Notes: a model not told the origin generated them from the letters alone. A DNA stretch of 64,000 nucleotides from Patescibacteria group bacterium (GCA_038064695.1 JBBTSO010000004.1:15792-79791), one strand, 5' to 3'; positions 5,141-62,500 are shown, counted from the first letter of the stretch. Numbers and translations: made by a program.

Positions 5141-5142
5141 GA

Positions 5143-5190
5143 AAAAACGGGAAGGGAATTCCTGTTTTTTCGGGGAGTCACCAGCTAGTA
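5143..5190. promoter_or_regulatory. 14-bp inverted-repeat hairpin between smpB and the tmRNA 5' end
   Basis: ccccgaaaaaacgg ... cctgttttttcgggg. It could be the smpB terminator and/or a tmRNA 5' processing signal. Confidence 0.4.
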
Positions 5191-5214
5191 TTCTTTTTTC
5201 AAGGTGCCGGAAAA

Positions 5215-5667
5215 TCAATCGTGAGATTGATTTTTAAGATGCAACTGGATCTGTCGTTTGCTGTCGCGTTCTTTCAACGCCTCTCGCTTATCATACTTCT
5301 TTTTATGGCGCGCGACCGCTACTTCCAGCTTTATCTTCCTACCTCTATTATACCATTTTATAGGTACTATTGTCAAACCCTTCTGTCCCTCGTGCTCAGC
5401 AAGCGTCACCAACTCTTTTTTGTTTAAGAGTAACCGGCGCGTGCGGTCTGCAGTATAAGAGGCAGGGGTGTTCTCTACTTGATAGGGAGAAATGGTGGCG
5501 CCCAAGAGAAATGCTTCGCCACCACGAATGACGACGCGCGCGCCTTCTAAACTTCCCATTCCACTTCGCACCGCTTTCACTTCAAATCCTAGGAGTTCTG
5601 CTCCCGCTTCAAACGTTTCAAGTAATTCGTAATTCAAGCGCGCCTTTTTGTTTTCAATAAATGCCAT
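5215..5667 (-). CDS. smpB: SsrA-binding protein SmpB
   Basis: 150 aa; MAFIENKKARLNYELLETFEAGAELLGFEVKAVRSG is the SmpB hallmark. Confidence 0.85.
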   Translation of the reverse strand: MAFIENKKARLNYELLETFEAGAELLGFEVKAVRSGMGSLEGARVVIRGGEAFLLGATISPYQVENTPASYTADRTRRLLLNKKELVTLAEHEGQKGLTIVPIKWYNRGRKIKLEVAVARHKKKYDKREALKERDSKRQIQLHLKNQSHD

Positions 5668-5687
5668 CTAACGGTATAATACCTCGC

Positions 5688-8928: not shown

Positions 8929-9005
8929 GGGCGCGTAGCTCAGTTGGTTAGAGCACAGAGCTTATACCTCTGCGGTCCCTGGTTCGAGTCCAGGCGCGCC
9001 CACCA
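8929..9005 (+). tRNA. tRNA-Ile (anticodon UAU), CCA encoded
   Basis: Cloverleaf GGGCGCG / GCTC-AGTTGGTTA-GAGC / CAGAG-CTTATAC-CTCTG / CCTGG-TTCGAGT-CCAGG / CGCGCCC-A-CCA. All four stems are fully Watson-Crick. Confidence 0.85.
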
Positions 9006-12376: not shown

Positions 12377-12421
12377 GGTACAGTAGCAAACAGTGTCACT
12401 ACAGTATACGCTTCAGAGCTC

Positions 12422-13570
12422 ATGAAAAAAAAGAAAATAGACATTGGAAAGAAGTCACTCAAAGCGCATAAAAAGCTTGGGGGGAAAATTGCTACCGCCT
12501 CAAAAGTAACCTTAAAATCGCTCTCTGATTGGAGTACCTACTACACTCCCGGGGTAGGGGCAGTATCCACCCACCTAGCGAAACATCCCCATGACGCGAG
12601 CGTCTACACCATCAAGAAAAATACCGTCGCGGTTATCTCTGACGGTTCAGCGGTGTTGGGTTTAGGAAATATCGGCCCCTACGGCGCGCTCCCTGTTATG
12701 GAAGGCAAGGCGGCAATTTTTAAAGAGGTGGCGAACGTTGACGCAGTTCCTATCGTTTTAGACACACACGACCAAGAAAAAATTATTGAAACTATTGTAC
12801 ACATTGCGCCCGCATTTGGTGGCATAAACTTAGAAGATATTGCCTCGCCACAGTGTTTTTATATTGAAGAGGAGTTAAAAAAACAACTTTCCATTCCCGT
12901 GATGCACGACGACCAGCACGGGACCGCTATCGTGGTTTTGGCAGCGCTCACTAACGCATTAAGAGTGGTAAAAAAGAAAAAGGAAACTGTTTCAATAGTG
13001 ATTCTTGGTGCAGGAGCTGCGGGTTCTGCGGTAGCAAAATTGCTCGCGCTCGCCGGCTTTAAGGACCTCTGTGTCGTTGATCGTGAAGGCGCACTTTGTA
13101 GTTCAACAGCCGAGTTGCCGCTTCATAAAAAAATTCTTGCAATGCTCCCCTCTACAAAGTCTCATCTTAAAACACTTGAAGAGGTTATGGTGGGGGCAGA
13201 CGTTTTTATTGGCATTTCAAGCGCGAACGCAATAACCCAAAAAATGGTGAAGTCCATGGCGCCACACTCCATTGTTTTTGCGCTTGCCAACCCCACTCCA
13301 GAAATTATGCCGGACCTTGCAAAGCGTGCGGGGGCAAAGGTGGTGGCCACAGGAAGGTCTGACTTTCCAAACCAAGTTAACAACGCGCTTGTATTTCCTG
13401 GCGTGTTTCGCGGAGCGCTTGACCACCACGTGACTCAGATAACTGACGAAATGAAGCTTCGCGCTGCATACGCGCTCGCCAGAATGGTAAAAAAACCACA
13501 CGCGGAGCACATCATTCCGTCAGTACTCAATCCTCAGGTGGTGAAAGCGATAGCCAAGGCGATTAAGTAG
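12422..13570 (+). CDS. NAD(P)-dependent malic enzyme (short form)
   Basis: YTPGVG motif, Rossmann GAGAAG; 382 aa, typical of prokaryotic short malic enzymes. Confidence 0.8.
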   Translation: MKKKKIDIGKKSLKAHKKLGGKIATASKVTLKSLSDWSTYYTPGVGAVSTHLAKHPHDASVYTIKKNTVAVISDGSAVLGLGNIGPYGALPVMEGKAAIFKEVANVDAVPIVLDTHDQEKIIETIVHIAPAFGGINLEDIASPQCFYIEEELKKQLSIPVMHDDQHGTAIVVLAALTNALRVVKKKKETVSIVILGAGAAGSAVAKLLALAGFKDLCVVDREGALCSSTAELPLHKKILAMLPSTKSHLKTLEEVMVGADVFIGISSANAITQKMVKSMAPHSIVFALANPTPEIMPDLAKRAGAKVVATGRSDFPNQVNNALVFPGVFRGALDHHVTQITDEMKLRAAYALARMVKKPHAEHIIPSVLNPQVVKAIAKAIK

Positions 13571-48684: not shown

Positions 48685-48710
48685 AAAAACTTTTTGTTAT
48701 TTTTATTCTA

Positions 48711-49451
48711 CTATTTTGACACTCCTCGGAAATAGTCCGTCCCTCGGCCTTCTGGCCATTTTTGCGTTTCAATAAAGCGGCATAGGTAGGAATAAAAATT
48801 CACAGCCGATTGAATCGACGCTAATTTAATTCCTATGAATAATGTTGGATTAGTGTTAAAACTTTTCTTCAGGTAAATGGCGTCGGTTGGTAATATTGCT
48901 ATTTTGCTCCCATCTCCATGAACAATTCCATTTCTCTTGGAGTATAGATAATCCGCATAACCAATAACAGACGAGGGAACCTTGTTTCCTCTCGGTTTAT
49001 ATGAAAGGTGGATGCGGCCATCGTTAGCGTTAACCCTGGGACGGTTTAATTCTTGGCTTTCAACCTGCAGGCAGGTTTCCAAGAGTGTTCTAAGTTTTTT
49101 TGAATGACGTTCGCGTAGAAAATTAATTCGTACCAATTCTTCGATTCTCATTTTCACGTCCTCTTTCGGATTTTCTGAAGAGAGTATTTCATAAAACTCT
49201 TTGGCGTTAATGGTAGTATCTTTGACTTTATTAAGAACACTATCTTTAAATTCGGGAGAACTCTCTGCAAAAATGAGCAGTAAATAATCTAACAAGACAT
49301 CGAAACGGTTCACGAGATTTGTATATACCAAACGCTGTAGGTGTTTCCTATTTGCTTCTACTTTAATATTCTTCAGTTCGATAAGTGCTGATTCAATCTC
49401 GGTTTTTGAAAATTTCTCGAATTTTTTTATTAAGTTATCCGCTTCTTTCAT
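48711..49451 (-). CDS. hypothetical protein, possible HEPN-type (R-x4-H) domain
   Basis: C-terminal RNGIVHG fits the HEPN Rx4-6H motif and the protein is helical. Weak evidence. Confidence 0.3.
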   Translation of the reverse strand: MKEADNLIKKFEKFSKTEIESALIELKNIKVEANRKHLQRLVYTNLVNRFDVLLDYLLLIFAESSPEFKDSVLNKVKDTTINAKEFYEILSSENPKEDVKMRIEELVRINFLRERHSKKLRTLLETCLQVESQELNRPRVNANDGRIHLSYKPRGNKVPSSVIGYADYLYSKRNGIVHGDGSKIAILPTDAIYLKKSFNTNPTLFIGIKLASIQSAVNFYSYLCRFIETQKWPEGRGTDYFRGVSK

Positions 49452-49631
49452 AGGGTTAATTATACTCCCCGGAATCCGAACCTATCTCAATATACCTTCT
49501 TGTGCCTAAGACGGCATATGTCCTACTTTCGAGCGAACGAGGGTAATGAAAAAGTATGTTCATGCGCACAGCTGCGATGTCTGGTCCCGTACCACGTAAG
49601 TGAGACTGTTGAGCCTTATTGTAGCCGACTT

Positions 49632-50060
49632 TCAATTCTCACGCTGACGGCTTTGGGTCGATGTATTTAAGAGATACTCTTCCCACACTATCGGATACTG
49701 CTCGTGAGTTTTTGCCTCGACAAAAGCTACGCCCGAAGGAGTAAGTTCTCCCACTTTTCTAAACGGTCTCCATTCCAACCTCTTGAGAAGTCTTGCCTCG
49801 ACCAGGTGACTATCCTTGAACCGGACTTCGTAGGGGTTTCCCTGCAGATCGTTTTGCTCAAAATGCTCTTCTAGCATAGGGATGTTATCCGCATACTGCG
49901 GAGCGCTGGTTATCATTACCCCAACGAAGTAAGAGTCGTCATGACCGTCCAAAAAGACGATCGGGTGGATGGCGTCCGACCCCTTTCGACCGTATAAAAT
50001 ATCGCCCTTGTTCCATTCCATATATGACTTTTGTACCAAAATTATACAGTTTTGTACCAA
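49632..50060 (-). CDS. hypothetical protein, possible MazF/PemK-like toxin fold
   Basis: KGDILYG...HPIVFLDGHDDSYFVGVMITS resembles the MazF/Kid pattern (GDIvlV...RPavVvs). Weak evidence. Confidence 0.3.
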   Translation of the reverse strand: MVQNCIILVQKSYMEWNKGDILYGRKGSDAIHPIVFLDGHDDSYFVGVMITSAPQYADNIPMLEEHFEQNDLQGNPYEVRFKDSHLVEARLLKRLEWRPFRKVGELTPSGVAFVEAKTHEQYPIVWEEYLLNTSTQSRQREN

Positions 50061-50131
50061 AAAACGGCATCTGTATTTCCCCCGGGGAGAAATAGGCCGC
50101 TTTTTGTCTCGGCCCCCTATATACTTGAAAT

Positions 50132-50788
50132 ATGGATAGCGAGCAGAAAAAAGTAGCCTTTTACAGCTTCCCTCATGAACGAGAGGATCTAACTTTGCAT
50201 GTACGCCCTACTGCAAACGCGTGGTGGAAAGATCTGAAAAAAGTTGGCCTCCTTTTGGATGCGTTTGATAACCATTGTTCTCCGATCGATGAGGCTTGCT
50301 ACGTCGCGGGTATAACGCGCCGGCAATATAAATACTTCGCCCAGGAGCATCCAGTAATTTACGAACGGCGAAGGCGAGCAAAGTTTGCAAAGTGCGAACG
50401 CGAGATTGAAGAGAAAAGTTCGATGTATGGACACAGGATGAGAAACGGGAGTATGAAAAGTACGTTTCAGTTTCTTACATTCACAGAGCCGGGACAATTC
50501 GACTTGCGATACCGATCTGACTACGCGCGACTTCGCCGAATCCACGGACTCCCTGCTCATACGCCACCCCCAAGATCGGAAGAAGAAAAGCGTAGAGATA
50601 TGTTGGCGGAGGTTGAGAAGACCCGCATTATGCTGGGCCATCCTTCTGATCCGAAGCACTATGCGGTGTGCCAGGAGTGCGAACATCTTCTTCTCCCGCC
50701 ATCCGAGTGGCCTGAGCCGTATCGCTCTTCTTATTTTCAAAGTATGCCTCAAGGGCCAGCTCAGCCAAGTCATACAACTGCTGTCTAA
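50132..50788 (+). CDS. hypothetical protein (HTH-like segment); the 3' third is uncertain
   Basis: The N-terminal two-thirds look protein-like (ACYVAGITRRQYKYF HTH-like). The Pro-rich C-terminus overlaps a better-looking minus-strand ORF. Confidence 0.25.
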   Translation: MDSEQKKVAFYSFPHEREDLTLHVRPTANAWWKDLKKVGLLLDAFDNHCSPIDEACYVAGITRRQYKYFAQEHPVIYERRRRAKFAKCEREIEEKSSMYGHRMRNGSMKSTFQFLTFTEPGQFDLRYRSDYARLRRIHGLPAHTPPPRSEEEKRRDMLAEVEKTRIMLGHPSDPKHYAVCQECEHLLLPPSEWPEPYRSSYFQSMPQGPAQPSHTTAV

Positions 50789-50843
50789 CTTCAATAAGGT
50801 ATTCATCGGTGTAAGTCTCATCGGCTGGTAACAGCTCCCGCAT
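50628..50843 (-). CDS. small acidic protein (hypothetical)
   Basis: MRELLPADETYTDEYLIEVRQQLYDLAELALEAYFENKK is an acidic helical peptide directly downstream of the Imm gene. Start trimmed to the internal ATG. Confidence 0.25.
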   Translation of the reverse strand: MRELLPADETYTDEYLIEVRQQLYDLAELALEAYFENKKSDTAQATRMAGEEDVRTPGTPHSASDQKDGPA

Positions 50844-50866
50844 CTTCGCAAGAGATATACGACCAT

Positions 50867-51073
50867 CTACTGAGTCGGGATTATTTTCTTGTTGTCGTCC
50901 GCTACTGCCCATACAAGTGCAATTACCCAGCCAATAAGTGTCCACCCCAGGAAGAGATTGAGGACGAAGATGGCCCCAGCATTAGACCGACCACGAATAA
51001 TCCCGATACCCGCCGGGAGCATGTAAATGGTGAGGCACAACAGGATGCCGATAATTAGAGTTATTGCTTTCAT
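50867..51073 (-). CDS. superinfection immunity protein (T4 Imm-like family)
   Basis: 68 aa, two TM helices. YMLPAGIGIIRGRSNAGAIFVLNLFLGWTLIGWVIALVWA matches the Imm-superinfection family motif (...NLxLGWTxIGWxxALxWA). Confidence 0.6.
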   Translation of the reverse strand: MKAITLIIGILLCLTIYMLPAGIGIIRGRSNAGAIFVLNLFLGWTLIGWVIALVWAVADDNKKIIPTQ

Positions 51074-51198
51074 GTGTGTTCTATACCTTCCTTTTAAAAA
51101 TTGTCGTAATCAGGTTATCCCCTTATGGACCTTACGGGGTTAGTGTAGCATAAATATCCCATTTTGGGATATCCTCTTTTAGGATACACGCTTAGTGG

Positions 51199-51417
51199 AT
51201 GGACAAATCCATCCACTCAAAGGAATACAAGATAGTTCTTGAGCGTATGAGGAAAGCGCGACTTGAAGCCGGTCTCACACAAGTGCAGGTCGCGAAGAAA
51301 CTGGGCCACCACCAGTCTTACGTATCGAAGATTGAAAGCGGAGAACGTCGTGTTGACGTTATCGAACTGAATAAGTTCGCAAAGCTTTACGGAAAGAGCG
51401 TTAACTACTTCCTCTAG
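51199..51417 (+). CDS. XRE-family helix-turn-helix transcriptional regulator
   Basis: GLTQVQVAKKLGHHQSYVSKIESGER Cro/C1-type HTH; 72 aa. Confidence 0.75.
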   Translation: MDKSIHSKEYKIVLERMRKARLEAGLTQVQVAKKLGHHQSYVSKIESGERRVDVIELNKFAKLYGKSVNYFL

Positions 51418-51423
51418 AGAGAC

Positions 51424-51993
51424 TTAGTAAAAAATGACTCCGCTTCTCTTGAGTTCACTGCGTATCTGTAAATAATCAGGTATCCCTTTCTCGACCCATT
51501 TCCAAAATTTCCGGGAGTGATTGAACTCTTTCAAGTGAGACATCTCGTGCGCGATGATGTAGTCAGAGAGTCGCTGCGGCAAAAGTGCAATTTTGTAGTT
51601 AAAATTTAGGTTGCCTTTCTTTGAGCAACTACCCCAGCGGGTCTTTTGGTTCTTGATGTTAATTTGATTGTAATCGGCCTTATAGATCTTGTTGAAGTGC
51701 TTAACCCGGGCAACAGCGAGAGCCTGCGCACCGTCCTTATATTTTATATAGTCGGACTCGCTATATCGTGCGATTGCCTGACCTTTGAACTGTTTAAAGA
51801 ACGCGATCTTGGAGAAAAGCCACTGGCTCTTCTCTTTAATAAATCGCTCTGCTGTTGATTCCTGAAGATCAAACGGCGTTGTAACAACAATCGTCCCATC
51901 GCAATACACTGCGAGTCGCATTCTACGTGCTCGCTTACTCTTGCGGAGTGTGTAGTCAACTTTACGATTTGCGAGAGTGATTTGCTTCCTCAT
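51424..51993 (-). CDS. DUF45 / M48-like zinc metallohydrolase (YgjP family), RM-associated
   Basis: WGSCS ... HEMSHL motif arrangement. Immediately downstream of hsdR. Confidence 0.7.
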   Translation of the reverse strand: MRKQITLANRKVDYTLRKSKRARRMRLAVYCDGTIVVTTPFDLQESTAERFIKEKSQWLFSKIAFFKQFKGQAIARYSESDYIKYKDGAQALAVARVKHFNKIYKADYNQINIKNQKTRWGSCSKKGNLNFNYKIALLPQRLSDYIIAHEMSHLKEFNHSRKFWKWVEKGIPDYLQIRSELKRSGVIFY

Positions 51994-51994
51994 A

Positions 51995-54901
51995 TCAGAA
52001 TTTCTTAATCACTATGTCGACTAAGCGATTGAGATACTTGTGGAAATCCGCGACCTTTAACTTTCCTTTGTATTCTTTAAGCACAAGCTCCTGAACAATC
52101 CGCTTCACTTCTTTGAGGAATTCGTCACGCTTTGAGGATTCCTGCCATCCCTCATCGAGAACATCTTGAAGCCGGCTGGTCATATCTTTGATGAAATCAC
52201 GAATGACATCCTTATCTCCTTCAACGAATTCTTCTGAGATGACATAGAGGCCGTACTCTTTCAGTGAATAACCAAGCTCTTTTGCCTCGTCTCCCTTTTT
52301 CTTTATGTCTTCAAGAAGCTCCTGGTATCGCTTGATGCGCTCCGATAGATCGATCTGATTTTGTTCAAACTCCTTACGAATAGCGGAGAGCCGCTCACTG
52401 AACTTTTTGTACGCAGGGTTAGTGTCGACGTTTATGGAGATTTCTTGCTTAAGCATCTTCTCCAGGTTAAGCGCCTTCTCTTCATCATCCATCTTATTGA
52501 GCCGCTCCATGACATAAAGGTCATTCACATTGAGCTCCCTAAAGTTCTTAGTGATACCTTCGTAGTCCACGCGCTGCTGAATGAGAAGCTTTACCTTCTC
52601 ACCATACTCAGCAAGAAGCTCAGCGTCGGTCATCTTAGCTCCGTATTCCTTGTCGAATGCAATATAAACGCTCGTAAGCCATTCAAATGCCCGAATATGT
52701 GTCTTCAAAAATGGGTCAGGAGAGAGAATCTCAAACAAGAGCTTGAGACGGGCATACTTCTCACGAAAGAACTTCTGCTTATCGGTGTTCTCCGCAAAGA
52801 TCTTAAGACAGCGGCGCAGGTTTTCAATTGATGGATCCTCAATACTGACTCCTCCAAACACATCCATAGTCTCTTCAAGCACTTCGATAAACTCTTCCTT
52901 GAGCTTGTCGATGTTGATCATTGCAGAATCAACAACGCTCTCATCAAAGTTAAGCGCCTTGTGGAGACTCTTCGTGATGCCGTAGTAGTCGATAACCTTG
53001 CCGGCCCCCTTGTTTGGGTACACACGGTTCGTGCGTGCAATGGCCTGTAGCAAATTGTGATCCCAGAGCGGCTTATCAAGGTACATGACCTGTTCAACTG
53101 GGGCGTCAAAGCCGGTCAAAAGCATGTCACAAACCAGTAGGAACTTGAGAGGACTGTTTGGATCCTTAAACTCATTGATCAACTTCTCCCGCTTCGCTTT
53201 AGTAGTGTTGTACTTCTGGAGATCCTCAGCGCTTGTATTTGGGTCGCCTGGGGAATAAATGACGGCCGACCACTCCTTGGGCACAAGTTCGTCTAGCAAT
53301 TCTTTGTATCTCGCTGTCGCCTCACGGTCATAGCAGACAATCTGTGCTTTGAAACCAGCGGGTTCAACGTACAGTTTGTAGTGCTCGACAATATCTTGTG
53401 CAACAGCACGCATACGTCTATCGAGCTTTACGATCGCTTCTTTCTTCCCATATTTCTTTGCAACCTGGTCTTTCTCTTTGTCCGAAAGTCCCTGGGTTAG
53501 TTCTTCAAATTGCTTATCTATTTTCTCTTCATCAATAAAGAACTTTGAGAGTCGTGCTTCGTAAGTAACCGGGAGCGTGGCCCCATCCTCAACGGCTTGC
53601 TGAATCGAGTAATAGTCTAAGTAGCGCTCTCCCTCCTCCCCGAAGTTGCGATGGGTATTAAGTGTAGCTTTATCGATAGGCGTACCGGTAAAACCAAAGA
53701 AGAAAGCGTTCTTCAGAGAACTGCGGAGATTGATTGCAGAAACACCTTCGTTGTCTCTATGAGCCTCGTCTGAAAGAACGATAATGTTCTCGTCGAGATT
53801 CTCTATTTCATTTCCAAGCTCAGAGAATTTCTGAATAGTGGATATAAAGATGCCACGCTCAGGTGATTGTATTTTCTTCTCGAGCTCTTTGCGCGAATCA
53901 ACACGGACGACATTCTTACCTCCGCAGTTTACAAAAGTCTCATAGATCTGATCATCAAGGTCAATGCGGTCAACCAGAATAAATATCTTCGGATTCTTAA
54001 GTGCTTTATCAAAACGTAGCTTCCACGCAGTAAAGAACATCGTTAAGGACTTACCGGACCCCTGGGTGTGCCAAATAAGACCGCGCTTCTGGCTGCCTTC
54101 TGCCACTCGCTCGACAATCTTGTTTGTCGCTCGAAGTTGCTGATACCGTGCAATTTTCTTTACAGTGCGTTCCTTCTCCTTTTCGAAAAGAATAAAGTTC
54201 CTCACAATATCCAGTAAGCGTTCTTTTGAGAGTAGCGCCGTGAGAGTCATTTCCAATTCGCCACCGGCCAGCTTTTCAAGCTCCTCGTCACGCCATCGCA
54301 AGAAATACTGTGCAGGGGCATACGTAGCCCCGTACACAGTCTGTAGACCGTCAGTAGCGATATTGAAACAGTTCGGCCAGAACAGTTTGAATGCATTGCG
54401 CTCATAGCGCTTTATCTGCCCAACAGCGTTTGTATAGTTCACATTGCTTGCGGCAGTGGGACTCTTAGCCTCTACATCCACCACCGGGAGACCATTTAGG
54501 AAAACCATTACATCCGGGCGAATGTTCTCGGAATTTCCCTCAAAATAGAATTGATTGGTTACAACAAACCGATTATTGTCAGGTGTTTCAAAGTCGACGA
54601 CATAGTAGTCCCGCATTTTGCCGGTCTGAGGATCCTTCAAGTTGACGCCATCTCGAAGCATTTGAAGAAATGCTTCGTTGTTATCTATCTTCTTCACTTC
54701 GCGAACGACTGATACAGCTTCGTCTTCACCTATTCCGTTAATTTTCTTCACTGCTTCAAGAAGAAGCGGAGTGATTATGTATTCATTCTCAAACTCGCGG
54801 AGCTTGGTGAACTCCTGTGGCTTGATGTATTCGAAACTAAGCTTCTCTTGGAGAAACTTAATGACGTGATTTTCTACTGTATATTGTTCGTTGAATTTCA
54901 T
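51995..54901 (-). CDS. hsdR: type I restriction enzyme R subunit
   Basis: 968 aa. SF2 translocase motifs (TQGSGKS Walker A, VLSDEAHR DEAH box), N-terminal nuclease region, C-terminal helical domain. Confidence 0.9.
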   Translation of the reverse strand: MKFNEQYTVENHVIKFLQEKLSFEYIKPQEFTKLREFENEYIITPLLLEAVKKINGIGEDEAVSVVREVKKIDNNEAFLQMLRDGVNLKDPQTGKMRDYYVVDFETPDNNRFVVTNQFYFEGNSENIRPDVMVFLNGLPVVDVEAKSPTAASNVNYTNAVGQIKRYERNAFKLFWPNCFNIATDGLQTVYGATYAPAQYFLRWRDEELEKLAGGELEMTLTALLSKERLLDIVRNFILFEKEKERTVKKIARYQQLRATNKIVERVAEGSQKRGLIWHTQGSGKSLTMFFTAWKLRFDKALKNPKIFILVDRIDLDDQIYETFVNCGGKNVVRVDSRKELEKKIQSPERGIFISTIQKFSELGNEIENLDENIIVLSDEAHRDNEGVSAINLRSSLKNAFFFGFTGTPIDKATLNTHRNFGEEGERYLDYYSIQQAVEDGATLPVTYEARLSKFFIDEEKIDKQFEELTQGLSDKEKDQVAKKYGKKEAIVKLDRRMRAVAQDIVEHYKLYVEPAGFKAQIVCYDREATARYKELLDELVPKEWSAVIYSPGDPNTSAEDLQKYNTTKAKREKLINEFKDPNSPLKFLLVCDMLLTGFDAPVEQVMYLDKPLWDHNLLQAIARTNRVYPNKGAGKVIDYYGITKSLHKALNFDESVVDSAMINIDKLKEEFIEVLEETMDVFGGVSIEDPSIENLRRCLKIFAENTDKQKFFREKYARLKLLFEILSPDPFLKTHIRAFEWLTSVYIAFDKEYGAKMTDAELLAEYGEKVKLLIQQRVDYEGITKNFRELNVNDLYVMERLNKMDDEEKALNLEKMLKQEISINVDTNPAYKKFSERLSAIRKEFEQNQIDLSERIKRYQELLEDIKKKGDEAKELGYSLKEYGLYVISEEFVEGDKDVIRDFIKDMTSRLQDVLDEGWQESSKRDEFLKEVKRIVQELVLKEYKGKLKVADFHKYLNRLVDIVIKKF

Positions 54902-56061
54902 GATTCTAGATCTATTTGCAGATTCGTAAGTGCCGCTTGGTACTCCTGTGCCCTTGTAATTATTGCCGTCGCAGTAGATTCCGCTTCATCGTTTCCAACA
55001 CCTACGCGAATCAGTTCATTGCTTAGGTCTACCTGATTGACATTTGCGAAGCCAAGCACCGCTCTAACAGAAAGATTTTCTTTGATAGAATCTTGCTCTG
55101 AGGCAATTAAGAGTTTAGAGGCTTGCGATACTCCGTGAAGCAAGAAAGAAACATCTTGTTTACTGATGACTTTTTTAATTCGGACCTTTAACTCCTCCTC
55201 ATTTACCTCTTCAGAAACGTTGGTACCACTGAATATCTGACGATTAATATCTTCGTTGCTAGCCACCTCTCCCAGGCCGAGACGATCGCCACTTACAAAA
55301 CCGATGTTTGTGACATTCATATTTGTCTGGGTCAGAAGAAAGTTAATCATGAGGTACCCCTGGTCTCGGTAATTAATATCTTTCAGCCGCTCATACTGTG
55401 CTTTATCGGCCTGTTCTAGCTTAGTTAAAAATTCTGCCCATTCTTTGTCGCGAATTTTGTCGAGATGGTACATCAAGAATTTCTTAAACTCTTTTATATC
55501 CTTCAGCTTTTCCTCTTTAAGGTTGTTTTTGTTTATCAGGAAGCACGCTGAACGTTTGCCAAGCCGGGCAAAGCCGAGATCTTTCAGAAAGACCGGGTAC
55601 AGTCTGTTTGGTTGTGTTTCAAAATCTGGTATTGCAAGAGAGCGAACCAATCTACCTAGAGACGCACTATATACAAAGAGTGTGTAGTAGCCGGATGTAG
55701 TTGCTAAAGCAAAGAGGTCTTTTTCGCGCACTTCACTCTCTGCAAGGAGTTTGTTCAGAAGACCAAGCGCCTTCTGTCGTTCAGCGCGATCCGCGAAATA
55801 TTCTTTTTGCTCTTTCGCAAGTTTATCAAGATCTTCCTTCGTTTGCGTCGCCGTTTCAGCAACTGAATCAATTTTTGCGTCTGATAGATCCTGGTTTTTA
55901 TCCTCCTGGTACTTCTGATAAAAGCCATGCGATATGTCAACGACAAAGTAAAGAAGAAAAAGTACCGGGCTTTTCAATATCACTACAGCAAAAGCCCCGA
56001 GAGCTTTGAGGCCCAGGAGTTTATATTCAAGCAGCCGTTCTATTTCTTTCTTGGTAATCAT
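54898..56061 (-). CDS. uncharacterised membrane-anchored coiled-coil protein embedded between hsdS and hsdR
   Basis: 4-nt overlaps at both ends (56058-56061, 54898-54901). N-terminal hydrophobic segment LGLKALGAFAVVILKSPVLFLLYFVV. No Walker motifs and no recognisable nuclease or methylase motifs. Confidence 0.5.
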   Translation of the reverse strand: MITKKEIERLLEYKLLGLKALGAFAVVILKSPVLFLLYFVVDISHGFYQKYQEDKNQDLSDAKIDSVAETATQTKEDLDKLAKEQKEYFADRAERQKALGLLNKLLAESEVREKDLFALATTSGYYTLFVYSASLGRLVRSLAIPDFETQPNRLYPVFLKDLGFARLGKRSACFLINKNNLKEEKLKDIKEFKKFLMYHLDKIRDKEWAEFLTKLEQADKAQYERLKDINYRDQGYLMINFLLTQTNMNVTNIGFVSGDRLGLGEVASNEDINRQIFSGTNVSEEVNEEELKVRIKKVISKQDVSFLLHGVSQASKLLIASEQDSIKENLSVRAVLGFANVNQVDLSNELIRVGVGNDEAESTATAIITRAQEYQAALTNLQIDLES

Positions 56062-57239
56062 GGTGTTTTTACTCTCACCGATCCTGTCAGCAGGTCTTGC
56101 ATGAGACCCTTCTTAAGTAGAAAAAGCTTGCCCTTCAATTTTTGATTGATGGAGATTTTTTCATCGACCGAAGTGAGAATGTTGGCAATTTCTTTTTGTT
56201 CACTGACAGAAGGGCGAGATATGTACATCTCACGAATAACAGTTTGGGATATGTTTGGTTGTGCAGCGCCCCGGGCTTTAGAAATTAGTTCTTCAGTCTT
56301 ATTGGAAAGAAAATAATACACAAACTCTGGATTGAAGTGTTCGCTAGGCAAAACTCCACAAACCGCCTGGTTGGTTGAAGCATTAATCGATAAAAATCCA
56401 ACTTGCCCCGCCGTTGCCCCATACATTGCAACAAGAACAGTACTTTTGGGGAATATTTTTGCAGATGAGTTTTTAAGGCCAGCATTTGTAATATATTGAG
56501 TGGCATTATAAACACGTCCTTGTCGTACCTCACCGCTCGTTAACCAAGGGATAGTGCCGCCCTCGTAGTATTCTTTTTTACTCTTGAGTGGAGTGCCACC
56601 GGAAGAGGTGTCGAGGACATCACCAAGCTTTTTGACGTCCCACGTACTTGGTACTTCTCCGATTTCTGTTCTCTTAAATTTCGTATGTCCGATACCACGC
56701 GTAAATAGCTGCTGCATTAGCCCGCCCTTGAGTTTCTCGGTCGCAGTAATGATCTCATCAGTTTTCTGAATCTCTTCATCAACCACACTCAAGATCTCCG
56801 CGATTTTCTTTTGTTCAGAGTGTGGAGGAACAAGAACCTCCATGTTTTGATATTGAGAAATGTAATATCGTTTATGACTTCCCGTCGGAAAGTTGATTGA
56901 CTTCATTTTCTCGTAGACAAACTGAAGGTCGACATCGGCACCCCTTTCCTTGAGAATTTTTATTGCCGACGACTTAACCTTAAACGGAAAATCTGCGAAC
57001 TTGCTGTCGGTTGTAAAATCATCAAAAATTATTGCCGGCAAATTTGTATAAATACCGTCTTTCTCATCCGTATAACCGAGAACAAAAGACTTGTTTGCAG
57101 TAAGAACTGGCGTGCCGGCTTTTATATATCGATTGTTCTCGACTATGTATCTGTCGGGACGTTCATAACCCAGCAGATCCTTAATCTGTCTTACTTGCCA
57201 CCCTTTCGGAATATTCTTTTTTGGCGCAGTTTTTGTCAT
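56058..57239 (-). CDS. hsdS: type I restriction-modification specificity subunit
   Basis: Two target-recognition domains separated and flanked by conserved coiled-coil repeats; 393 aa. Confidence 0.85.
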   Translation of the reverse strand: MTKTAPKKNIPKGWQVRQIKDLLGYERPDRYIVENNRYIKAGTPVLTANKSFVLGYTDEKDGIYTNLPAIIFDDFTTDSKFADFPFKVKSSAIKILKERGADVDLQFVYEKMKSINFPTGSHKRYYISQYQNMEVLVPPHSEQKKIAEILSVVDEEIQKTDEIITATEKLKGGLMQQLFTRGIGHTKFKRTEIGEVPSTWDVKKLGDVLDTSSGGTPLKSKKEYYEGGTIPWLTSGEVRQGRVYNATQYITNAGLKNSSAKIFPKSTVLVAMYGATAGQVGFLSINASTNQAVCGVLPSEHFNPEFVYYFLSNKTEELISKARGAAQPNISQTVIREMYISRPSVSEQKEIANILTSVDEKISINQKLKGKLFLLKKGLMQDLLTGSVRVKTP

Positions 57240-59041
57240 TTTCTAAATTCGATCTCAGTAAAAAGCGCAGCGATATTTTTCTTGGTCGTATCGCTCAAAG
57301 TCACTGACCCAGCACGCACCTTCTGGAGAAACTTGCGCGCGAGCAATACCTTGTCGGGACGCGACTTGAGACCTTTGATGTACTCGGAGTTTGAGGATGT
57401 GTATGCGAGCTTTGTATCCTCAAGAACATATTCCTTGAAATCTTCAACACTGAAGATGTCAACAATAGTTGTTCCGTCCTTTTTGGTGACCACTTTTATA
57501 GCTTCTGGAAGCACTTTCCAATCCTTCAACCTCTTCTCGCCATCCTTCTTACCTTGGTCGTTGTCATAGAGGTAACGAACGTTGGCACCCCAGCCCTCAA
57601 GAACCGCACCGACGAGGCCCATGTTCGGTGCACCGCCGCCATTGATGAAGTTCGTTTTGAGAGTCTTTTTCTCAAGCTCCTTGAAAGCTCGGAGATAGAA
57701 CACGTCTTCCGGCCCTTCGACTACAACGTTATCCTTTTGATCAAGGTTTGTAATTGAGTCGTTAATGCCGAGACCAATAGCGGTGAGAATAGGCGTAAGT
57801 GTTTCTTTGTCTGCAGTCGGATGAGCGTGTATTTTGCCGAGTATCTTTGTGCCTTTCGCTGTCTTTTCGATCAATCGAACATTTTCAAGGTTATCCTCGG
57901 TAAGGAGATACGGGGAGTGCGTCGAGAAGACAACAGGGTTATCGTTCGTGTGCTCCGTGAGGACCTGTAACAGGTCCTTCTGGGCTTTGGCATGCAGATA
58001 GAGGCCCGGCTCGTCGATTAGGATGACGTTCGGCTTGTCTTCCTGAAGCCGCGCGACGATTTTTACATAGAATGATAGGTACCACTGCTGACCCTTGCTC
58101 CGTTGCGAGGGGTAGTAGAGCTTATTACTCTCGACGATCCAGAAGTTAATGTCCGTACCGTCTTTTTTGACCTCCAATTTTATTTTGTCCTGCGTCCAAT
58201 ATTTCTCAAATTTGTCAGAAAATTCAACGTTCACGGTCTTCTCGTGATTTGCCTGCTCCTGCTGGTTCGTTGATGCCATCTTTGCGATGGAAAAGTTGCT
58301 GACCTGTTCAAGATCTTTCGCCCAGTCATTTGTTGCAAGTGAAGCAATGGGAATTGATTTCGGGAATTCGTCGTCGAAGGACGAGAAGAGAACGAAGTAA
58401 GGAAGTTGAGTCTCAACGAATTTGCTGATGAAAGCAGTTACCACACTCTCTCGCGCATAAAAGTCGTCAGCGGCCTTGCCAATCTTCTCGACCTCACTTG
58501 CCACATCTGTTAACCCCGGATTCTGGTTCTTAAAAGTCTCCGCTTCGGCTTTATAGTCGCTGAGTTTTTGCTTCTCGAAGCGTGGGAATTTTGCGTCACT
58601 GCCAGCAGTCTTAATGAGAGAGTCGGCCTTCTTCATCGAATCGAGAATCTGTTTTTTTGATGTGCTGTATATATTTGGCAGACTAAGCAGTTTTCGTGAT
58701 TCATCATCAAACGTGTATGTATCCGCACCAAATTTCTTCGTGAGGGTAATGAGTGTATCCTTGGAGACTGTTGTTCCGGCCGCTGCCTCGTCAAGGAGAT
58801 CATTTATTTCCTCTTTCGTGAGAGTAAAGGAGATCGAGACTTCAGGAATCCCGTCTCCTTCGATTGGTTTTGCCTCTCCTCTGATTGCTCGGCTTTGATG
58901 GAAGTCTTCCAGTGCTTCGAGCACAGAAGTTTTCCCAGACTCGTTTTTGCCAGCAAGAATGGTTAGTTTTTCACTGAAATAACAATCACCGGAGTCCACG
59001 ATGGATTTGTAGTTTTTGATTCTGAATTTCGTAAGTTTCAT
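57236..59041 (-). CDS. OLD-family ATP-dependent endonuclease (ABC-type ATPase + Toprim) embedded between hsdM and hsdS
   Basis: N-terminal Walker A ILAGKNESGKTSVLEAL; Walker B/D-loop LIDEPGLYLH; C-terminal Toprim-like VVVEGPEDVFYLRAF and YLYDNDQGK (DxD). ATG at 59041 lies 4 nt after the hsdM stop; the longer track ORF extends into hsdM. Confidence 0.65.
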   Translation of the reverse strand: MKLTKFRIKNYKSIVDSGDCYFSEKLTILAGKNESGKTSVLEALEDFHQSRAIRGEAKPIEGDGIPEVSISFTLTKEEINDLLDEAAAGTTVSKDTLITLTKKFGADTYTFDDESRKLLSLPNIYSTSKKQILDSMKKADSLIKTAGSDAKFPRFEKQKLSDYKAEAETFKNQNPGLTDVASEVEKIGKAADDFYARESVVTAFISKFVETQLPYFVLFSSFDDEFPKSIPIASLATNDWAKDLEQVSNFSIAKMASTNQQEQANHEKTVNVEFSDKFEKYWTQDKIKLEVKKDGTDINFWIVESNKLYYPSQRSKGQQWYLSFYVKIVARLQEDKPNVILIDEPGLYLHAKAQKDLLQVLTEHTNDNPVVFSTHSPYLLTEDNLENVRLIEKTAKGTKILGKIHAHPTADKETLTPILTAIGLGINDSITNLDQKDNVVVEGPEDVFYLRAFKELEKKTLKTNFINGGGAPNMGLVGAVLEGWGANVRYLYDNDQGKKDGEKRLKDWKVLPEAIKVVTKKDGTTIVDIFSVEDFKEYVLEDTKLAYTSSNSEYIKGLKSRPDKVLLARKFLQKVRAGSVTLSDTTKKNIAALFTEIEFRK

Positions 59042-59045
59042 AATT

Positions 59046-60791
59046 TCAATAATTAAGCTCTTTGAGATATCCTTCGACTTTTTTATCAAGCTCCGTACGT
59101 TCCTTCTCAAGAACAGCGAGCTCCTTGCGCACAGCAGAGACGTCAACCTCTTCCTCCTTGTCACCATTTTCAATATAGCGACGCACATTAAGATTGAACT
59201 CATTTGCCTCTATCTCTTTGAGATCAACGACCCGGGTGTAGTTATCAATATCCTTAAAGCCGTCATACGCTTTGACGATCTTCTGAATGTCCTGGTAGCG
59301 AAGAGAGTTCTGATTCTTACCCTCAGAAAAGTCCTTTTCACCATCGACAATAAGCACCTTACCTTTGCGAGCTTCTGGCTTGTTTTTGTTGAAGATAAGA
59401 ATCGCTGCTGGAATACTTGTGCCGTAGAAAAGCTTTGATGGGAGTGCGATCACCGCCTCAATGAGATCGTTCTTGAGTATTTGCTCGCGAATACGACCTT
59501 CAGACCCACCTCTAAACAGCACCCCGTGTGGGAGCACGATACCAGCGCGCCCATTCGAATTCATCGATTTAATGATGTGAAGTACGAATGCATAATCAGC
59601 GTTCTTGTTCGGCGGCAATTCATATCCGTCGATACGGCCATATTTGTCCGACTTGAACATCTCATACTCCCAGTCGTTGATTGAGTACGGAGGGTTTGCG
59701 ACACAGATATCAAATGACTTGAGACTGCCATTCGGATTCAGAAACTGTGGGTTAGCCAAAGTATCTCCACGTAGAATGTCGGCGCTGTCGAGACCATGAA
59801 GAAACATGTTGATCTTCGCAATTGCGTATGTACCAATGTTGATCTCTTGGCCGTAGAGATAGAGAGTGCGTGCAACTTGTTCGCCCTCTTTTTCTTTCAA
59901 ATGATGGAACGCTTCAAGAAGGAACCCGCCTGATCCGACCGTAGGGTCGTAGATGTGATCCTTTTTGTGCGGCTTGAGTATTTGTATGATGACGCGCTCT
60001 ACCTCACGCGGAGTATAAAACTCACCTCCTTTCTTCCCAGCGTCAGCCGCGAATTGCTTGATGAGGTATTCGTATGCGTCACCAAGAACGTCGGAGTTAA
60101 TGTAAGTGTCGCCAAAGTTATACTGCGAGAAGTGGTTTATGAGACGCTGTGTCGTTTCGTTCGGGAATCGGTCCTTGTTTGCAAAATCGAGATCGTCAAA
60201 AATTCTGTCGAGTTTCGGGCTGTTTGCATTTGCGAGCTTTTCAAAAATCTCATTGAGTTTCTTGCCGATATTCTCAGCCTTCTCTTCAACGACGGCCCAA
60301 CGGCACTCCTTTGGTACTTGAAAGCGGTGATTGTAGTCTGCCCGCGCGATTGTTTCGTCTTTGAACTCATCCATCACCCGCGCGTACTCCTCATCCCACA
60401 CGTCGCTGATGCGTTTAAAAAAGAGGAGGCCGAAGATGTACTTTTTATAGTCGGAGCTATCAATTTTGCCGCGCAGAATGTCGGCGCTCTTCCAGAGAAA
60501 TTGTTCAAGCTGCGGAAGAGTAAGCTTGCTCCCCATCTTATCGACGATCGTCTGGATGTCTTGGGGGCGGTATTTACGATCCCCACGTTTACCAGAACGC
60601 ATAGGCACTAAAATGCCCTCCTTTTCCCAGTTACGGAGAGTGTCCGGATGGATATTAAAAATCTCTGCCACTTGGCCGATAGAGAGGAGGTCGGGCTTAT
60701 CCTTGAGCTTTGCTTGGATGTCTTTTCTCATAATCTTCATTAATATCCTATCTGACTGCAAATACAAAGTCAAGTGTTCATAGGTCTTCAT
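59046..60791 (-). CDS. hsdM: type I RM N6-adenine DNA methyltransferase M subunit with an N-terminal MerR/excisionase-type HTH extension
   Basis: HsdM_N helix (LPQLEQFLWKSADILRG), SAM motif, catalytic NPPY (ANPPYS). The first ~85 aa (SIGQVAEIFNIHPDTLRNWEKEGILVP) form an HTH_17/MerR-like domain in the same frame. Confidence 0.85.
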   Translation of the reverse strand: MKTYEHLTLYLQSDRILMKIMRKDIQAKLKDKPDLLSIGQVAEIFNIHPDTLRNWEKEGILVPMRSGKRGDRKYRPQDIQTIVDKMGSKLTLPQLEQFLWKSADILRGKIDSSDYKKYIFGLLFFKRISDVWDEEYARVMDEFKDETIARADYNHRFQVPKECRWAVVEEKAENIGKKLNEIFEKLANANSPKLDRIFDDLDFANKDRFPNETTQRLINHFSQYNFGDTYINSDVLGDAYEYLIKQFAADAGKKGGEFYTPREVERVIIQILKPHKKDHIYDPTVGSGGFLLEAFHHLKEKEGEQVARTLYLYGQEINIGTYAIAKINMFLHGLDSADILRGDTLANPQFLNPNGSLKSFDICVANPPYSINDWEYEMFKSDKYGRIDGYELPPNKNADYAFVLHIIKSMNSNGRAGIVLPHGVLFRGGSEGRIREQILKNDLIEAVIALPSKLFYGTSIPAAILIFNKNKPEARKGKVLIVDGEKDFSEGKNQNSLRYQDIQKIVKAYDGFKDIDNYTRVVDLKEIEANEFNLNVRRYIENGDKEEEVDVSAVRKELAVLEKERTELDKKVEGYLKELNY

Positions 60792-60812
60792 AGGTTAATA
60801 ACCTAACTTACG

Positions 60813-62207
60813 TTGCAAAATAAGGATAATTTGGTTATCCACTACCGCACTAGACTTCCTGACCCGGGTCCGGCTATATGTAGCTGTATGGAAAACGCGA
60901 CCCTTTATGGGGCCCAAATAGCCGCCCCTACCCCTCAGGAGGCCGTAGCGATCCGTTATTGCCTGTATGCTCGTAAATCCAGTGTAGCAGAGGAGAAACA
61001 AGCCTTATCGGTAGAATCCCAAGTTAAGGAGATGCTGGCGGTAGCCCAGCGGGAAAATCTTGAAATAGTGGACATTTACCGGGAATCTCATTCGGCCAAG
61101 GCCTGTGGAGAAAGACCTGTCTTTAATCAGCTCTTGAGCGACATCCGGGCAGAGAAATTCAACGGGGTCCTTGTATGGCATCCTGACCGGCTCAGCAGGA
61201 ATGCCGGCGACCTGGGTGCGATCGTAGACCTCTTTGATCAAAAGAAACTCATTGAAATAAAGACTCACAGCCAGCGCTTCACAAATAATCCGAATGAAAA
61301 ATTCCTGCTCATGATTCTTGGTAGCCAAGCAAAGCTGGAGAACGACAACAAAAGCATCAACGTAAAGCGTGGGTTGAAAACTAAGTGCGAACTGGGGCTC
61401 TGGCCGTCGGTGGCACCGACAGGATATTTGAATAGTAAAAACGTAACGCAGAAAGGTCAGGTGTTTGTGGATCCCGAAAGAGCACCTCTCATTAAGGAAC
61501 TTTTTACAAAGTTTGCACACCACGGCATGAGTGGCAGAAAAATCTTTCGTTGGCTTCGCGAGATAGGTTTCCTTACCCGAACTGGCAAACCACTGACGCT
61601 AAGCAACATATACGTTATCTTAAACAACCACTTTTATTACGGTGCTTTTGAATATCCCAAGGCAAGCGGTAGATGGTACCAGGGTAGCCACACTCCCCTC
61701 ATCACCAAGGGGCTCTTTGATGATGTACAGAAACAACTGCAACTACAACGCAAGATTAAGGGAAAGAACAAGGAGTTCGCATTCACGAAGCTAATGACCT
61801 GCGGGCTGTGCGGTTCGGGGATCAGCGCAGAGGAGAAATATAAAAATCTGAAAGACGGATCCGTTGCCAAGTACATCTACTATGGCTGTACCCGGGCACG
61901 AGACATAAACTGCAAGGGTGGATATCTCGAGGAGAGGCAACTTGTCACTCAGTTATTGGAGCTGATGGATAAGGTGGATCTCGACAAATCCGGTATACGA
62001 AAAAAGTTAGAGATGGAGATCGAGCGACATAAAAAGTTCCACTCAAACATTATGGGCAAAAAAGAGGAGGAGTATCGAGCAAAAGATGTCGACATACGAA
62101 ATTACGCAAAGTATGTTTTGAACGAAGGATCCATCTTTGAGAAACGTGACTTGATTGGATGCCTACGTAGCAAAGTGCAGATCTCAAATAAGCGCATATC
62201 CATCTAA
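60813..62207 (+). CDS. large serine recombinase (integrase type)
   Basis: Catalytic YARKSS...Q resolvase domain, recombinase domain, zinc-ribbon CGLCGSG...YYGC, coiled-coil C-terminus. The true start may be ATG 60885. Confidence 0.85.
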   Translation: MQNKDNLVIHYRTRLPDPGPAICSCMENATLYGAQIAAPTPQEAVAIRYCLYARKSSVAEEKQALSVESQVKEMLAVAQRENLEIVDIYRESHSAKACGERPVFNQLLSDIRAEKFNGVLVWHPDRLSRNAGDLGAIVDLFDQKKLIEIKTHSQRFTNNPNEKFLLMILGSQAKLENDNKSINVKRGLKTKCELGLWPSVAPTGYLNSKNVTQKGQVFVDPERAPLIKELFTKFAHHGMSGRKIFRWLREIGFLTRTGKPLTLSNIYVILNNHFYYGAFEYPKASGRWYQGSHTPLITKGLFDDVQKQLQLQRKIKGKNKEFAFTKLMTCGLCGSGISAEEKYKNLKDGSVAKYIYYGCTRARDINCKGGYLEERQLVTQLLELMDKVDLDKSGIRKKLEMEIERHKKFHSNIMGKKEEEYRAKDVDIRNYAKYVLNEGSIFEKRDLIGCLRSKVQISNKRISI

Positions 62208-62215
62208 CTCATTGC

Positions 62216-62255
62216 AAAAAGAAAAACCGCTGAGATTAGTCAGCGGTTTTTCTTC
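62216..62255 (+). terminator. intrinsic terminator after the recombinase gene
   Basis: aaaaaccgctgagattagtcagcggtttttc. Confidence 0.7.
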
Positions 62256-62344
62256 TCTGAATACGGCGCTCAGCCGGTATGCCATGACGGGATGGAGTTA
62301 TCTAGTTTCGACGGCTTTAGGTCCATCGATACTAAACTAGACTG

Positions 62345-62415
62345 CTGGGAGACTTGGATTCGAACCAAGATTGACTGCTCCAGAGGCAGTAGTCCTACCA
62401 TTAGACGATCTCCCA
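62345..62415 (-). tRNA. tRNA-Gln (anticodon CUG)
   Basis: Minus strand UGGGAGA-UC-GUCU...GGAC-U-ACUGC-CUCUGGA-GCAGU-CAAU-CUUGG-UUCGAAU-CCAAG-UCUCCCA-G. U1-A72 as in many tRNA-Gln genes. Confidence 0.8.
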
Positions 62416-62478
62416 GCTGTATTCACGAATCAAAGAACAACTTTTTCATTACCGAGTGAGCGCTGAAAGGAAGCTTTG

Positions 62479-62500
62479 CTTACCACTAGACGATCTCCCA
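62479..62500 (-). pseudogene. partial duplicate of the tRNA-Gln 5' 22 nt
   Basis: ttaccactagacgatctcccaa versus ctaccattagacgatctcccag at 62396-62417. Confidence 0.4.

Follow-up and report, generated by a model that had tools for sequence, protein, structure and literature searches.

Mobile elements that carry a large serine recombinase (LSR) include SPbeta (SprA), TP901-1, A118, phiC31/Bxb1 and SCCmec (CcrAB). Their recombinases combine Resolvase, Recombinase and zinc-ribbon domains with a catalytic serine and a DRLSR motif, the elements have the integrase gene at one end, and recombination at an imperfectly palindromic attP of about 50 bp yields a hybrid attL, one arm coming from the host and the other from the element. 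Here we describe a 13.7-kb block that has the first two of these properties; as to the third, a hybrid attL can be defined, and candidate attP sequences are given by junctions in related loci at which two element arms, P and P', meet. It lies between capA and a tRNA-Gln gene in a 64,000-nt stretch of DNA, hereafter the window, from a Patescibacteria group bacterium (GCA_038064695.1 JBBTSO010000004.1:15792-79791). The block differs from the described LSR elements in its target, the extreme 3' end of a tRNA gene, in its host, which belongs to the Paceibacteria of the candidate phyla radiation (CPR), and in its cargo, which is made up of defence genes where the others bring phage or resistance genes; we identified no recombination directionality factor in it. 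As far as we know, the serine integrases that have been studied well insert into protein-coding or intergenic sequence. For CPR/Patescibacteria, little is charted of the mobile elements or of the sites where they integrate.

In its position, the block resembles the islands that tyrosine integrases insert at tRNA genes. Insertion is at the tRNA 3' end and leaves the tRNA intact, the integrase gene sits by the tRNA, the composition is atypical, the defence cargo is variable, and the same tRNA hotspot is reused, with tRNA fragments as scars; here, however, the enzyme is a serine recombinase and no long direct repeat flanks the block. The cargo recalls the Campylobacter RloA-H genes ('R-linked ORFs', for open reading frames) and the Escherichia coli prr/PrrC locus, in which accessory genes, including an OLD/AAA_15-type ATPase, are nested in the hsd operon of a Type I restriction-modification (RM) system. 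As in those loci, the slots are filled differently between related operons (window, L083, L112, L037, L135). The present operon differs in that it contains a family without known homologue (u387), is itself the cargo of a mobile island, and encodes an HsdM with a MerR-type helix-turn-helix (HTH). Its OLD-family protein has the N-terminal ABC-type ATPase and C-terminal Toprim domain of P2 Old, Gabija GajA and PARIS AriA, but in contrast to Gabija, PARIS and retron-Old it is encoded inside a Type I RM operon without a defined partner, and so fits no defined multi-gene system.

A compositionally foreign block at tRNA-Gln

All positions are given in the numbering of the whole window, and the island is taken as 48685-62343. 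The host genome is from groundwater and belongs to a member of the Patescibacteria (CPR) of Paceibacteria/Kaiserbacteria type; its nearest GTDB genomes share only 45-67% identity in CapA, and identical proteins are encoded on Hainich H41 0.1-µm contigs. A sequence-only reading of the window had proposed an AT-richer, probably integrated defence island ending in an LSR gene next to tRNA-Gln. Both composition checks, GC and tetranucleotide windows, bore out the shift. GC content was 0.449 in the island and 0.477 in the remaining window (Mann-Whitney p = 3e-4, 1-kb windows), no other 13.7-kb block of the window had a GC content below 0.462, and the tetranucleotide correlation with the host signature fell from about 0.92 outside to 0.49-0.64 in the island. 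The LSR is indeed the last gene before the tRNA (60888-62207); the right boundary, previously set at 62500, was corrected to 62343, the 3' end of the tRNA. We are highly confident that this foreign block between capA and tRNA-Gln is a genomic island integrated by the LSR, and the idea of a defence island is supported by empty sites, by related islands at tRNA-Gln and by the horizontal spread of the LSR, as described below. The features at the two ends are as follows.

48685-48710, no strand: capA-side junction, 26 nt between the capA stop (48684) and the u246 stop; no recognisable P half-site or attR
60888-62207, plus strand: LSR, 439 aa, full length, with Resolvase, Recombinase and Zn_ribbon_recom domains
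62219-62250, no strand: bidirectional intrinsic terminator hairpin
62254-62296, minus strand: conserved stem-loop between P' and the terminator
62301-62341, minus strand: hairpin 1, the inverted repeat of the sequence-only reading; the distal arm (62301-62315) varies between islands and the proximal arm is within P'
62320-62339, minus strand: putative P' half-site of attL, TAGTTTAGTATCGATGGACC, 20 nt, element-borne
62340-62343, minus strand: 4-nt spacer AGTC, which would hold the island/host junction (AGTT, AGCT, AACG or CACC in other islands)
62344-62415, minus strand: host tRNA-Gln(CUG); its 3' end would contribute the B arm and, in the terminal CAGC, the crossover
62479-62500, minus strand: tRNA-Gln 5'-end copy, outside the island and separated from the tRNA by 63 nt on its upstream side

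For comparison, we took 80 loci surrounding CapA homologues from GTDB genomes. The empty tRNA-Gln site suggested by the sequence-only reading was found in about 35 related Paceibacteria genomes that are without the block, where ctpS...capA is followed 40-2500 nt on by tRNA-Gln(CUG) on either strand. Among the fetched loci, island genes occurred only in L037, which has an LSR (54% identity), hsdM (82%), hsdS and hsdR (86%) 3' of its tRNA-Gln, and in L032 (LSR 37% identity, XRE 69%). Islands with the same LSR were located 3' of tRNA-Gln in L037, L083, L084/85, L112, L121, L123, L131, L133 and L145-147, often accompanied by the same Type I RM backbone. When identities to the window were compared on the same contigs, the LSR (79-95%) was better conserved than CTP synthase (61-66%) or CapA (50-58%), which points to horizontal spread of the LSR.

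An LSR family associated with tRNA-Gln

The LSR matched the Resolvase (PF00239, 2.4e-24) and Recombinase (PF07508, 3.7e-15) domains, with a borderline match to the zinc ribbon (PF13408, 2.2e-5; 25.2 bits against a cut-off of 25.3), and the catalytic motifs YARKSS and HPDRLSRN could be read in its translation. It aligned end to end with homologues of 439-445 aa. The closest solved structures were the integrases of SPbeta and TP901-1, and the best NCBIfam and PDB matches were CcrB, XisF, SPbeta SprA and TP901-1, with NCBIfam scores that were all far under the equivalog cut-offs. The gene is intact and is predicted to encode a serine integrase, with recombinase activity and att function assigned from sequence features.

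More than 120 cluster representatives, with 72-91% identity and mostly labelled Paceibacterota, belong to the LSR family. In every recovered context the gene was 3' of, and convergent with, tRNA-Gln, including L083 (91%), L084/85 (78%), L145-147 (77%, at tRNA-Gln(UUG)) and several metagenome contigs. Remoter relatives adjoin tRNA-Gln (L087, L139) or tRNA-Ser(GCU) (L135), or sit near tRNA-Leu (L013). Depending on the genome, P' and the LSR are separated by nothing, a 447-aa ORF, AbiTii, a 1607-aa ORF or a methyltransferase. Limited literature searches, covering serine recombinases of CPR as well as those at tRNA-Gln, yielded no account of this family, and on that basis it appears to be a previously undescribed, large family of tRNA-Gln-targeting islands with definable att sites.

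Two further observations concern the remoter recombinases. In one subfamily, the recombinase ORF extends about 50-60 nt into the opposite-strand tRNA-Gln (L032, tRNA 11326-11398 and ORF 11347-12993; L139, tRNA 4967-5038 and ORF 4978-6516), and integration may set the recombinase C-terminus in these loci. Beside a 512-aa LSR at tRNA-Gln(UUG), a block encoding XRE, a 221-aa protein and a 177-aa protein is inverted between L139 (7047-8471) and L140 (328-1752), contigs that are otherwise near-identical; it could be an invertible segment or a population variant.

A putative element-borne half-site follows the tRNA

The hybrid attL of the window consists of the tRNA, 4 nt and the conserved P', and no attR was found in the window. 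The P' motif TAGTTTAGTATCGATGGACC starts 4 nt past the tRNA in the window, L083, L084/85 and L145-147, all of them loci found via their proteins, with matches of 20/20 in L083 and 19/20 in both L084 and L145. A scan of metagenomes for the motif recovered 29 loci. Twenty distinct tRNA-Gln sequences adjoin it, with a mean pairwise identity of 68% for the tRNA and 47% for the following 24 nt. Since a constant motif stands beside differing tRNAs, it most plausibly belongs to the element as its P' half-site, which would place the host/island junction inside the 4-nt spacer.

Metagenomic loci supplied the arm that the window lacks. In L126, L128, L129, L124, L118 and L132 the tRNA is replaced by a tRNA-3'-like arm, as in GTTCCAACRTCGTMC..GACGGCCAGCAG, and these P+P' junctions are either attP or tandem joints. 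A second P arm 3.1 kb on in L129 bounds, together with P', a minimal element of 3.2 kb, and L113 has a complete attL/attR pair, the P side of its attR matching the L118 junction. Comparison of these three sites (L113 attL and attR, L118 junction) suggests that the tRNA gene is crossed over within its terminal CAGC. Some sublineages have a P arm that resembles the tRNA end without copying it exactly. The sequence-only reading had taken an 8-bp inverted repeat (62301-62308/62334-62341) as a possible recombination core. The repeat exists, but it is not the core. The arm nearer the tRNA overlaps P', and the far arm falls in a patch that differs between islands.

We propose that a circular element carried an attP of about 50 bp, made up of a P arm, the core and the P' arm TAGTTTAGTATCGATGGACC, and that the LSR would have recombined it with an attB that has the T-arm/acceptor 3' strand of tRNA-Gln as its left arm. 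With the crossover dinucleotide in the terminal CAGC, the tRNA would stay intact and attL would read tRNA, 4 nt, P'. This chemistry of island insertion by the LSR is inferred.

Two kinds of short sequence were also seen at such sites. Gene-free mini elements, which run for about 165 nt after the P' motif, were present in L106, L108/L134, L110/L115, L113 and L124. They retain P' at one end and a P-like sequence (TATATTTTGAGCCACGAAA..GTTCGARTCC) at the other; they are possibly non-autonomous derivatives mobilised in trans, and Rfam returned only a tRNA match on the mini element. Inverted copies of the tRNA T-arm/acceptor 3' sequence were present 20-150 nt 3' of tRNA-Gln at apparently empty sites (L029, L033, L040, L010, L014, L021) and may be the B' arm of attB or scars of earlier elements.

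A Type I RM operon with nested accessory genes

The cargo is defensive. It consists of a Type I RM system with two nested accessory genes, an XRE regulator with a superinfection immunity protein, and a HEPN-like protein with a small partner. Most of the island is a tightly packed operon of six genes, hsdM-old-hsdS-u387-hsdR-ygjP.

59046-60791, minus strand: HsdM, Type I methyltransferase (N6_Mtase + HsdM_N), with an N-terminal MerR-type HTH
57236-59041, minus strand: OLD-family ATPase-Toprim nuclease, between hsdM and hsdS
56058-57239, minus strand: HsdS specificity subunit (Methylase_S, two matched stretches), single copy
54898-56061, minus strand: u387, whose ends overlap hsdS and hsdR by 4 nt
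51995-54901, minus strand: HsdR restriction subunit (HSDR_N/SWI2_SNF2/T1R)
51424-51993, minus strand: YgjP-like metallopeptidase-domain protein, the last gene of the operon

By domain matches, the genes for HsdR, HsdM and HsdS form a complete Type I RM system at one locus. The N-terminal MerR-type HTH of HsdM, about 90 aa, was also present in L083 and L135 and is possibly a built-in controller of RM expression. There were no inverted hsdS fragments or extra hsdS copies, and no long inverted repeats between 47 and 64 kb. The positions between hsdM and hsdS and between hsdS and hsdR behave as slots whose content differs between loci.

Window: OLD nuclease between hsdM and hsdS; u387 between hsdS and hsdR
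L083: both slots empty
L112: OLD nuclease between hsdM and hsdS; hsdS-hsdR slot empty
L037: 217-aa ORF between hsdM and hsdS; 323-aa ORF between hsdS and hsdR
L135-137: 480-aa ORF between hsdM and hsdS; u387 homologue between hsdS and hsdR

With PADLOC, the OLD protein matched AriA (7e-27), Old (5e-24) and GajA (1e-16), as well as the PtuA model, and in the PDB it matched GajA and Ts OLD at about 1e-6. No partner of the kinds known for such proteins (GajB helicase, AriB or a retron reverse transcriptase) was found among its neighbours in the window, which are hsdM and hsdS. The product of u387, which has 25 family members, has an N-terminal hydrophobic, putatively transmembrane segment and long helices. 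Searches of Pfam, PADLOC, NCBIfam, PHROGs and PDB sequences, and a Foldseek search with an AlphaFold2 (AF2) model (predicted local distance difference test, pLDDT, 68), gave no informative match for u387. Unlabelled island genes such as this one may also serve in defence.

The left genes and the XRE regulator

The remaining cargo lies between capA and the operon.

48711-49451, minus strand: u246, HEPN-like candidate, 246 aa; family of 49, mostly CPR
49632-50021, minus strand: 129-aa ORF (u142) upstream of u246; family of 257 cluster representatives
50061-50866, no strand: doubtful coding stretch; codon scores back only the ORFs at 50132-50460 (plus) and 50628-50912 (minus)
50867-51073, minus strand: Imm_superinfect membrane protein (imm68), 68 aa
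51098-51198, no strand: XRE regulatory region, with palindromes ATATCCCATTTTGGGATAT and TATCCTCTTTTAGGATA at 51150-51187; 91-93% identical to L083
51199-51417, plus strand: XRE-family HTH repressor, 72 aa, 90% identical to that of L083

Domain matches agreed with the RM, OLD, Imm and XRE calls of the sequence-only reading, and its MazF-like call found no sequence support: neither the 129-aa ORF nor any of 45 family members matched MazF/PemK or another family in Pfam, and no PDB profile matched. The HEPN-like label of u246 comes only from an Rx4H motif (R173-x4-H178, invariant in 31 sequences), an all-helical model (pLDDT 91) and Foldseek matches whose top hits were HEPN toxins at non-significant scores (E > 1, TM-score < 0.35); Pfam gave no match. 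A u246 homologue with 68% identity was found in another LSR island, L139 at tRNA-Gln(UUG), with XRE in the same relative order. Public gene calls conflict at 50061-50866, where the minus-strand product is put at either 225 or 94 aa, and the stretch probably consists of decayed genes. The palindromes upstream of XRE were more conserved with L083 than the coding sequence was, and ATATCCCATTTTGGGATAT and TATCCTCTTTTAGGATA are likely operators. The ORF u218(+) was compared with the HTH protein of L133, and the two are not homologous.

Pfam and PHROGs searches of all island ORFs identified no virion, packaging, lysis or conjugation genes, and the only matches of this sort were Imm_superinfect and HTH proteins. 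Transfer would therefore need the help of another element. The genes on the other side of the tRNA encode u421, a secreted protein of low conservation, together with a membrane protein and TypA/BipA, and synteny to the right of tRNA-Gln is not conserved among relatives. Elsewhere in the window, at 8929-9005, there is a tRNA-Ile with the anticodon UAU, an uncommon bacterial means of reading AUA.

The capA end and alternative readings

Several results weigh against integration by the LSR as a single, complete island. No P half-site or attR was detected between capA and the LSR when the sequence was searched with the P arm in three versions, with a generic pattern resembling a tRNA 3' end and with a hidden Markov model (HMM) of P ends, nor was a P half-site found within 10 kb in L083 and L084. 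The leftmost 2.4 kb, from u246 to imm68, is common to no other locus compared and so could be a separate insertion. A circular or empty-site variant of this genome was not found, and all Hainich and Logan contigs with identical proteins carry the island. The high P' identity among the loci of the metagenome scan is in part a product of their having been fetched by pattern.

The sequence-only reading had suggested looking for a matching repeat near 48.69 kb, where the expected P half-site was not found. Searches for direct or inverted repeats joining the two island ends gave matches at chance level only. A match to ATGGACCT at 51125 was considered as an end repeat and discarded, as it falls in the conserved XRE operator region. 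There was also no tRNA-Gln 3' fragment at the capA end, as would be expected had the island brought its own tRNA. Serine integrases require only a 2-bp core, so the absence of an att-like repeat at this end is ill-suited to refute integration. The missing P has two possible explanations: either this sublineage has a P arm that differs from the recovered ones, or a deletion of the distal end has fixed the island in place. Because no P half-site is recognisable at the capA end, this copy of the island may be truncated and fixed rather than mobile.

The block could be composite, with an LSR island proper running from XRE to attL (about 51.1-62.3 kb) and abutting the remnant of an older and unrelated insertion (48.7-51.1 kb; u246, u142, decayed ORFs and imm68) that reached the same hotspot separately. 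We consider this history possible but doubtful. The backbone common to L083 extends only from XRE to attL (XRE 90%, operator region 91-93%, hsdM 81%, hsdR 71%), the left genes match no other locus compared, and 50.06-50.87 kb looks decayed; tandem elements occur at this site in L129 and L114, and tRNA-Gln fragments in several relatives show repeated events. However, similarity to L083 runs to the edge of the available DNA left of XRE, so that the backbone may reach further, no internal P/P' site lies between the two parts, and their GC contents are similarly low (0.442 and 0.448). Since the tRNA-Gln island of L139 pairs XRE with the u246 homologue in the same relative order, we treated the block as one island. 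The enzyme could also be a domesticated recombinase at a chromosomal defence hotspot, with the LSR and attL serving as a landing pad that captures or exchanges cassettes beside tRNA-Gln and does not move the whole island. The strong conservation of the LSR and P' even where no attR could be found (window, L083, L084), the differing gene content between P' and LSR, the gene-free 165-nt mini elements with both ends, and the tandem P+P' junctions all fit this idea. Ordinary islands, though, would be just as likely to show a conserved integrase module with variable cargo around it, and distal ends may lie past the 10-kb flanks; it also counts against a landing pad that we know of no serine integrase that recombines attP with attL, and we judge this reading improbable.

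Loss of structural genes from a prophage, leaving the LSR as integrase, XRE as repressor and Imm for superinfection exclusion, is quite improbable. Genes for terminase, capsid, tail, portal or lysis were found neither in the window, by Pfam and PHROGs, nor in the gene tables of L083, L084, L135 and L145, and the exact P' motif was absent from IMG/VR. LSR, XRE and Imm_superinfect genes are typical of lysogeny modules, and remoter LSR relatives (45-60% identity) are found on contigs that IMG/VR classes as viral, but one IMG/VR contig, L087, has tRNA-Gln and the host ctpS beside the LSR and therefore includes chromosomal DNA. Finally, the LSR gene is divergent from and adjoins hsdM in the window, L083, L037, L112 and L135, and the XRE block is inverted between contigs in one related island, as could be expected if the enzyme were no integrase but an invertase that makes the neighbouring Type I RM system phase-variable. 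We give this next to no credence, as the single hsdS has no inverted repeats or partial copies around it, the same LSR occurs without any RM genes in L084 and L145, and its large C-terminal Recombinase and zinc-ribbon domains are of the integrase type. Collectively, these comparisons favour a genomic island integrated by the LSR at the 3' end of tRNA-Gln.

A conserved stem-loop and tRNA fragments at the integration site

An intrinsic terminator, already noticed between the LSR and the tRNA in the sequence-only reading, was confirmed at 62219-62250. Between it and P', we identified a conserved stem-loop, CCGTCATKGCATACC-N-GCUGAGNGC-N'-GUAUUCAGA (CATACC-N-GC UGAGN GC-N'-GUAU). An HMM of the stem-loop found 15 instances (E ≤ 1.6e-5) across all loci compared; beside the window these were L083, L037, L035, L087, L109, L121, L122, L125, L128, L131, L132, L145, L005 and L119. 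Wherever the tRNA was complete, the stem-loop lay at most about 150 nt downstream of tRNA-Gln (once tRNA-Ser) in the orientation of the tRNA, and the 3 remaining instances followed P' at junctions without an intact tRNA. In the 15 distinct sequences, the 7-bp stem was 94% paired, compared to 84 ± 2% in shuffles, one pair covaried (GC 5, UA 5, CG 4, UG 1), and five wobble pairs were valid solely on the tRNA-sense strand. L035 and L087, from a sublineage whose P' differs, also have the stem-loop. Rfam gave only a tRNA match in the region.

The stem-loop may be a small RNA (sRNA) made when transcription from the tRNA promoter reads through, or it may act in cis in recombination. A bolder version, which we think rather unlikely, would have hairpin 1, the stem-loop and the terminator form an sRNA made by tRNA-Gln read-through only when the element is integrated, reporting integration and regulating the LSR and excision or the cargo; together with the mini elements and the variable P' slot, the site would then be a cassette-accepting platform.

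The 22-nt duplicate of the tRNA-Gln 5' end pointed out in the sequence-only reading is real, with 19/20 matches in its core and 20/22 overall. As the LSR crossover is at the tRNA 3' end, the LSR does not explain this 5' copy, and we leave it as the scar of another event at a recombination hotspot. Like 5' fragments were seen upstream of tRNA-Gln in L005 (about 60 nt), L011, L033 and L070, and upstream of tRNA-Ser(GCU) in L089 and L135; in several island-bearing loci such copies lie 60-95 nt upstream of the intact tRNA. They were considered as a regular by-product of the island and rejected as such, because most attL-bearing loci are without them.

Implications for Paceibacteria

The island is a serine-integrase integrative element with defence cargo, which is a known kind; what it adds is the large tRNA-Gln-specific family to which its recombinase belongs, so far confined to Paceibacteria, with definable att sites and a candidate sRNA. 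The Type I RM operon is shown to hold modular slots, occupied in this genome by an OLD nuclease and a member of the 25-member u387 family. The LSR family indicates that defence cargo has recently moved horizontally between these symbionts. Being abundant and conserved, with a set target, P' and a candidate attP, it provides a marker for defence islands in Paceibacteria and a candidate tool for site-specific integration in bacteria that are currently without genetics.

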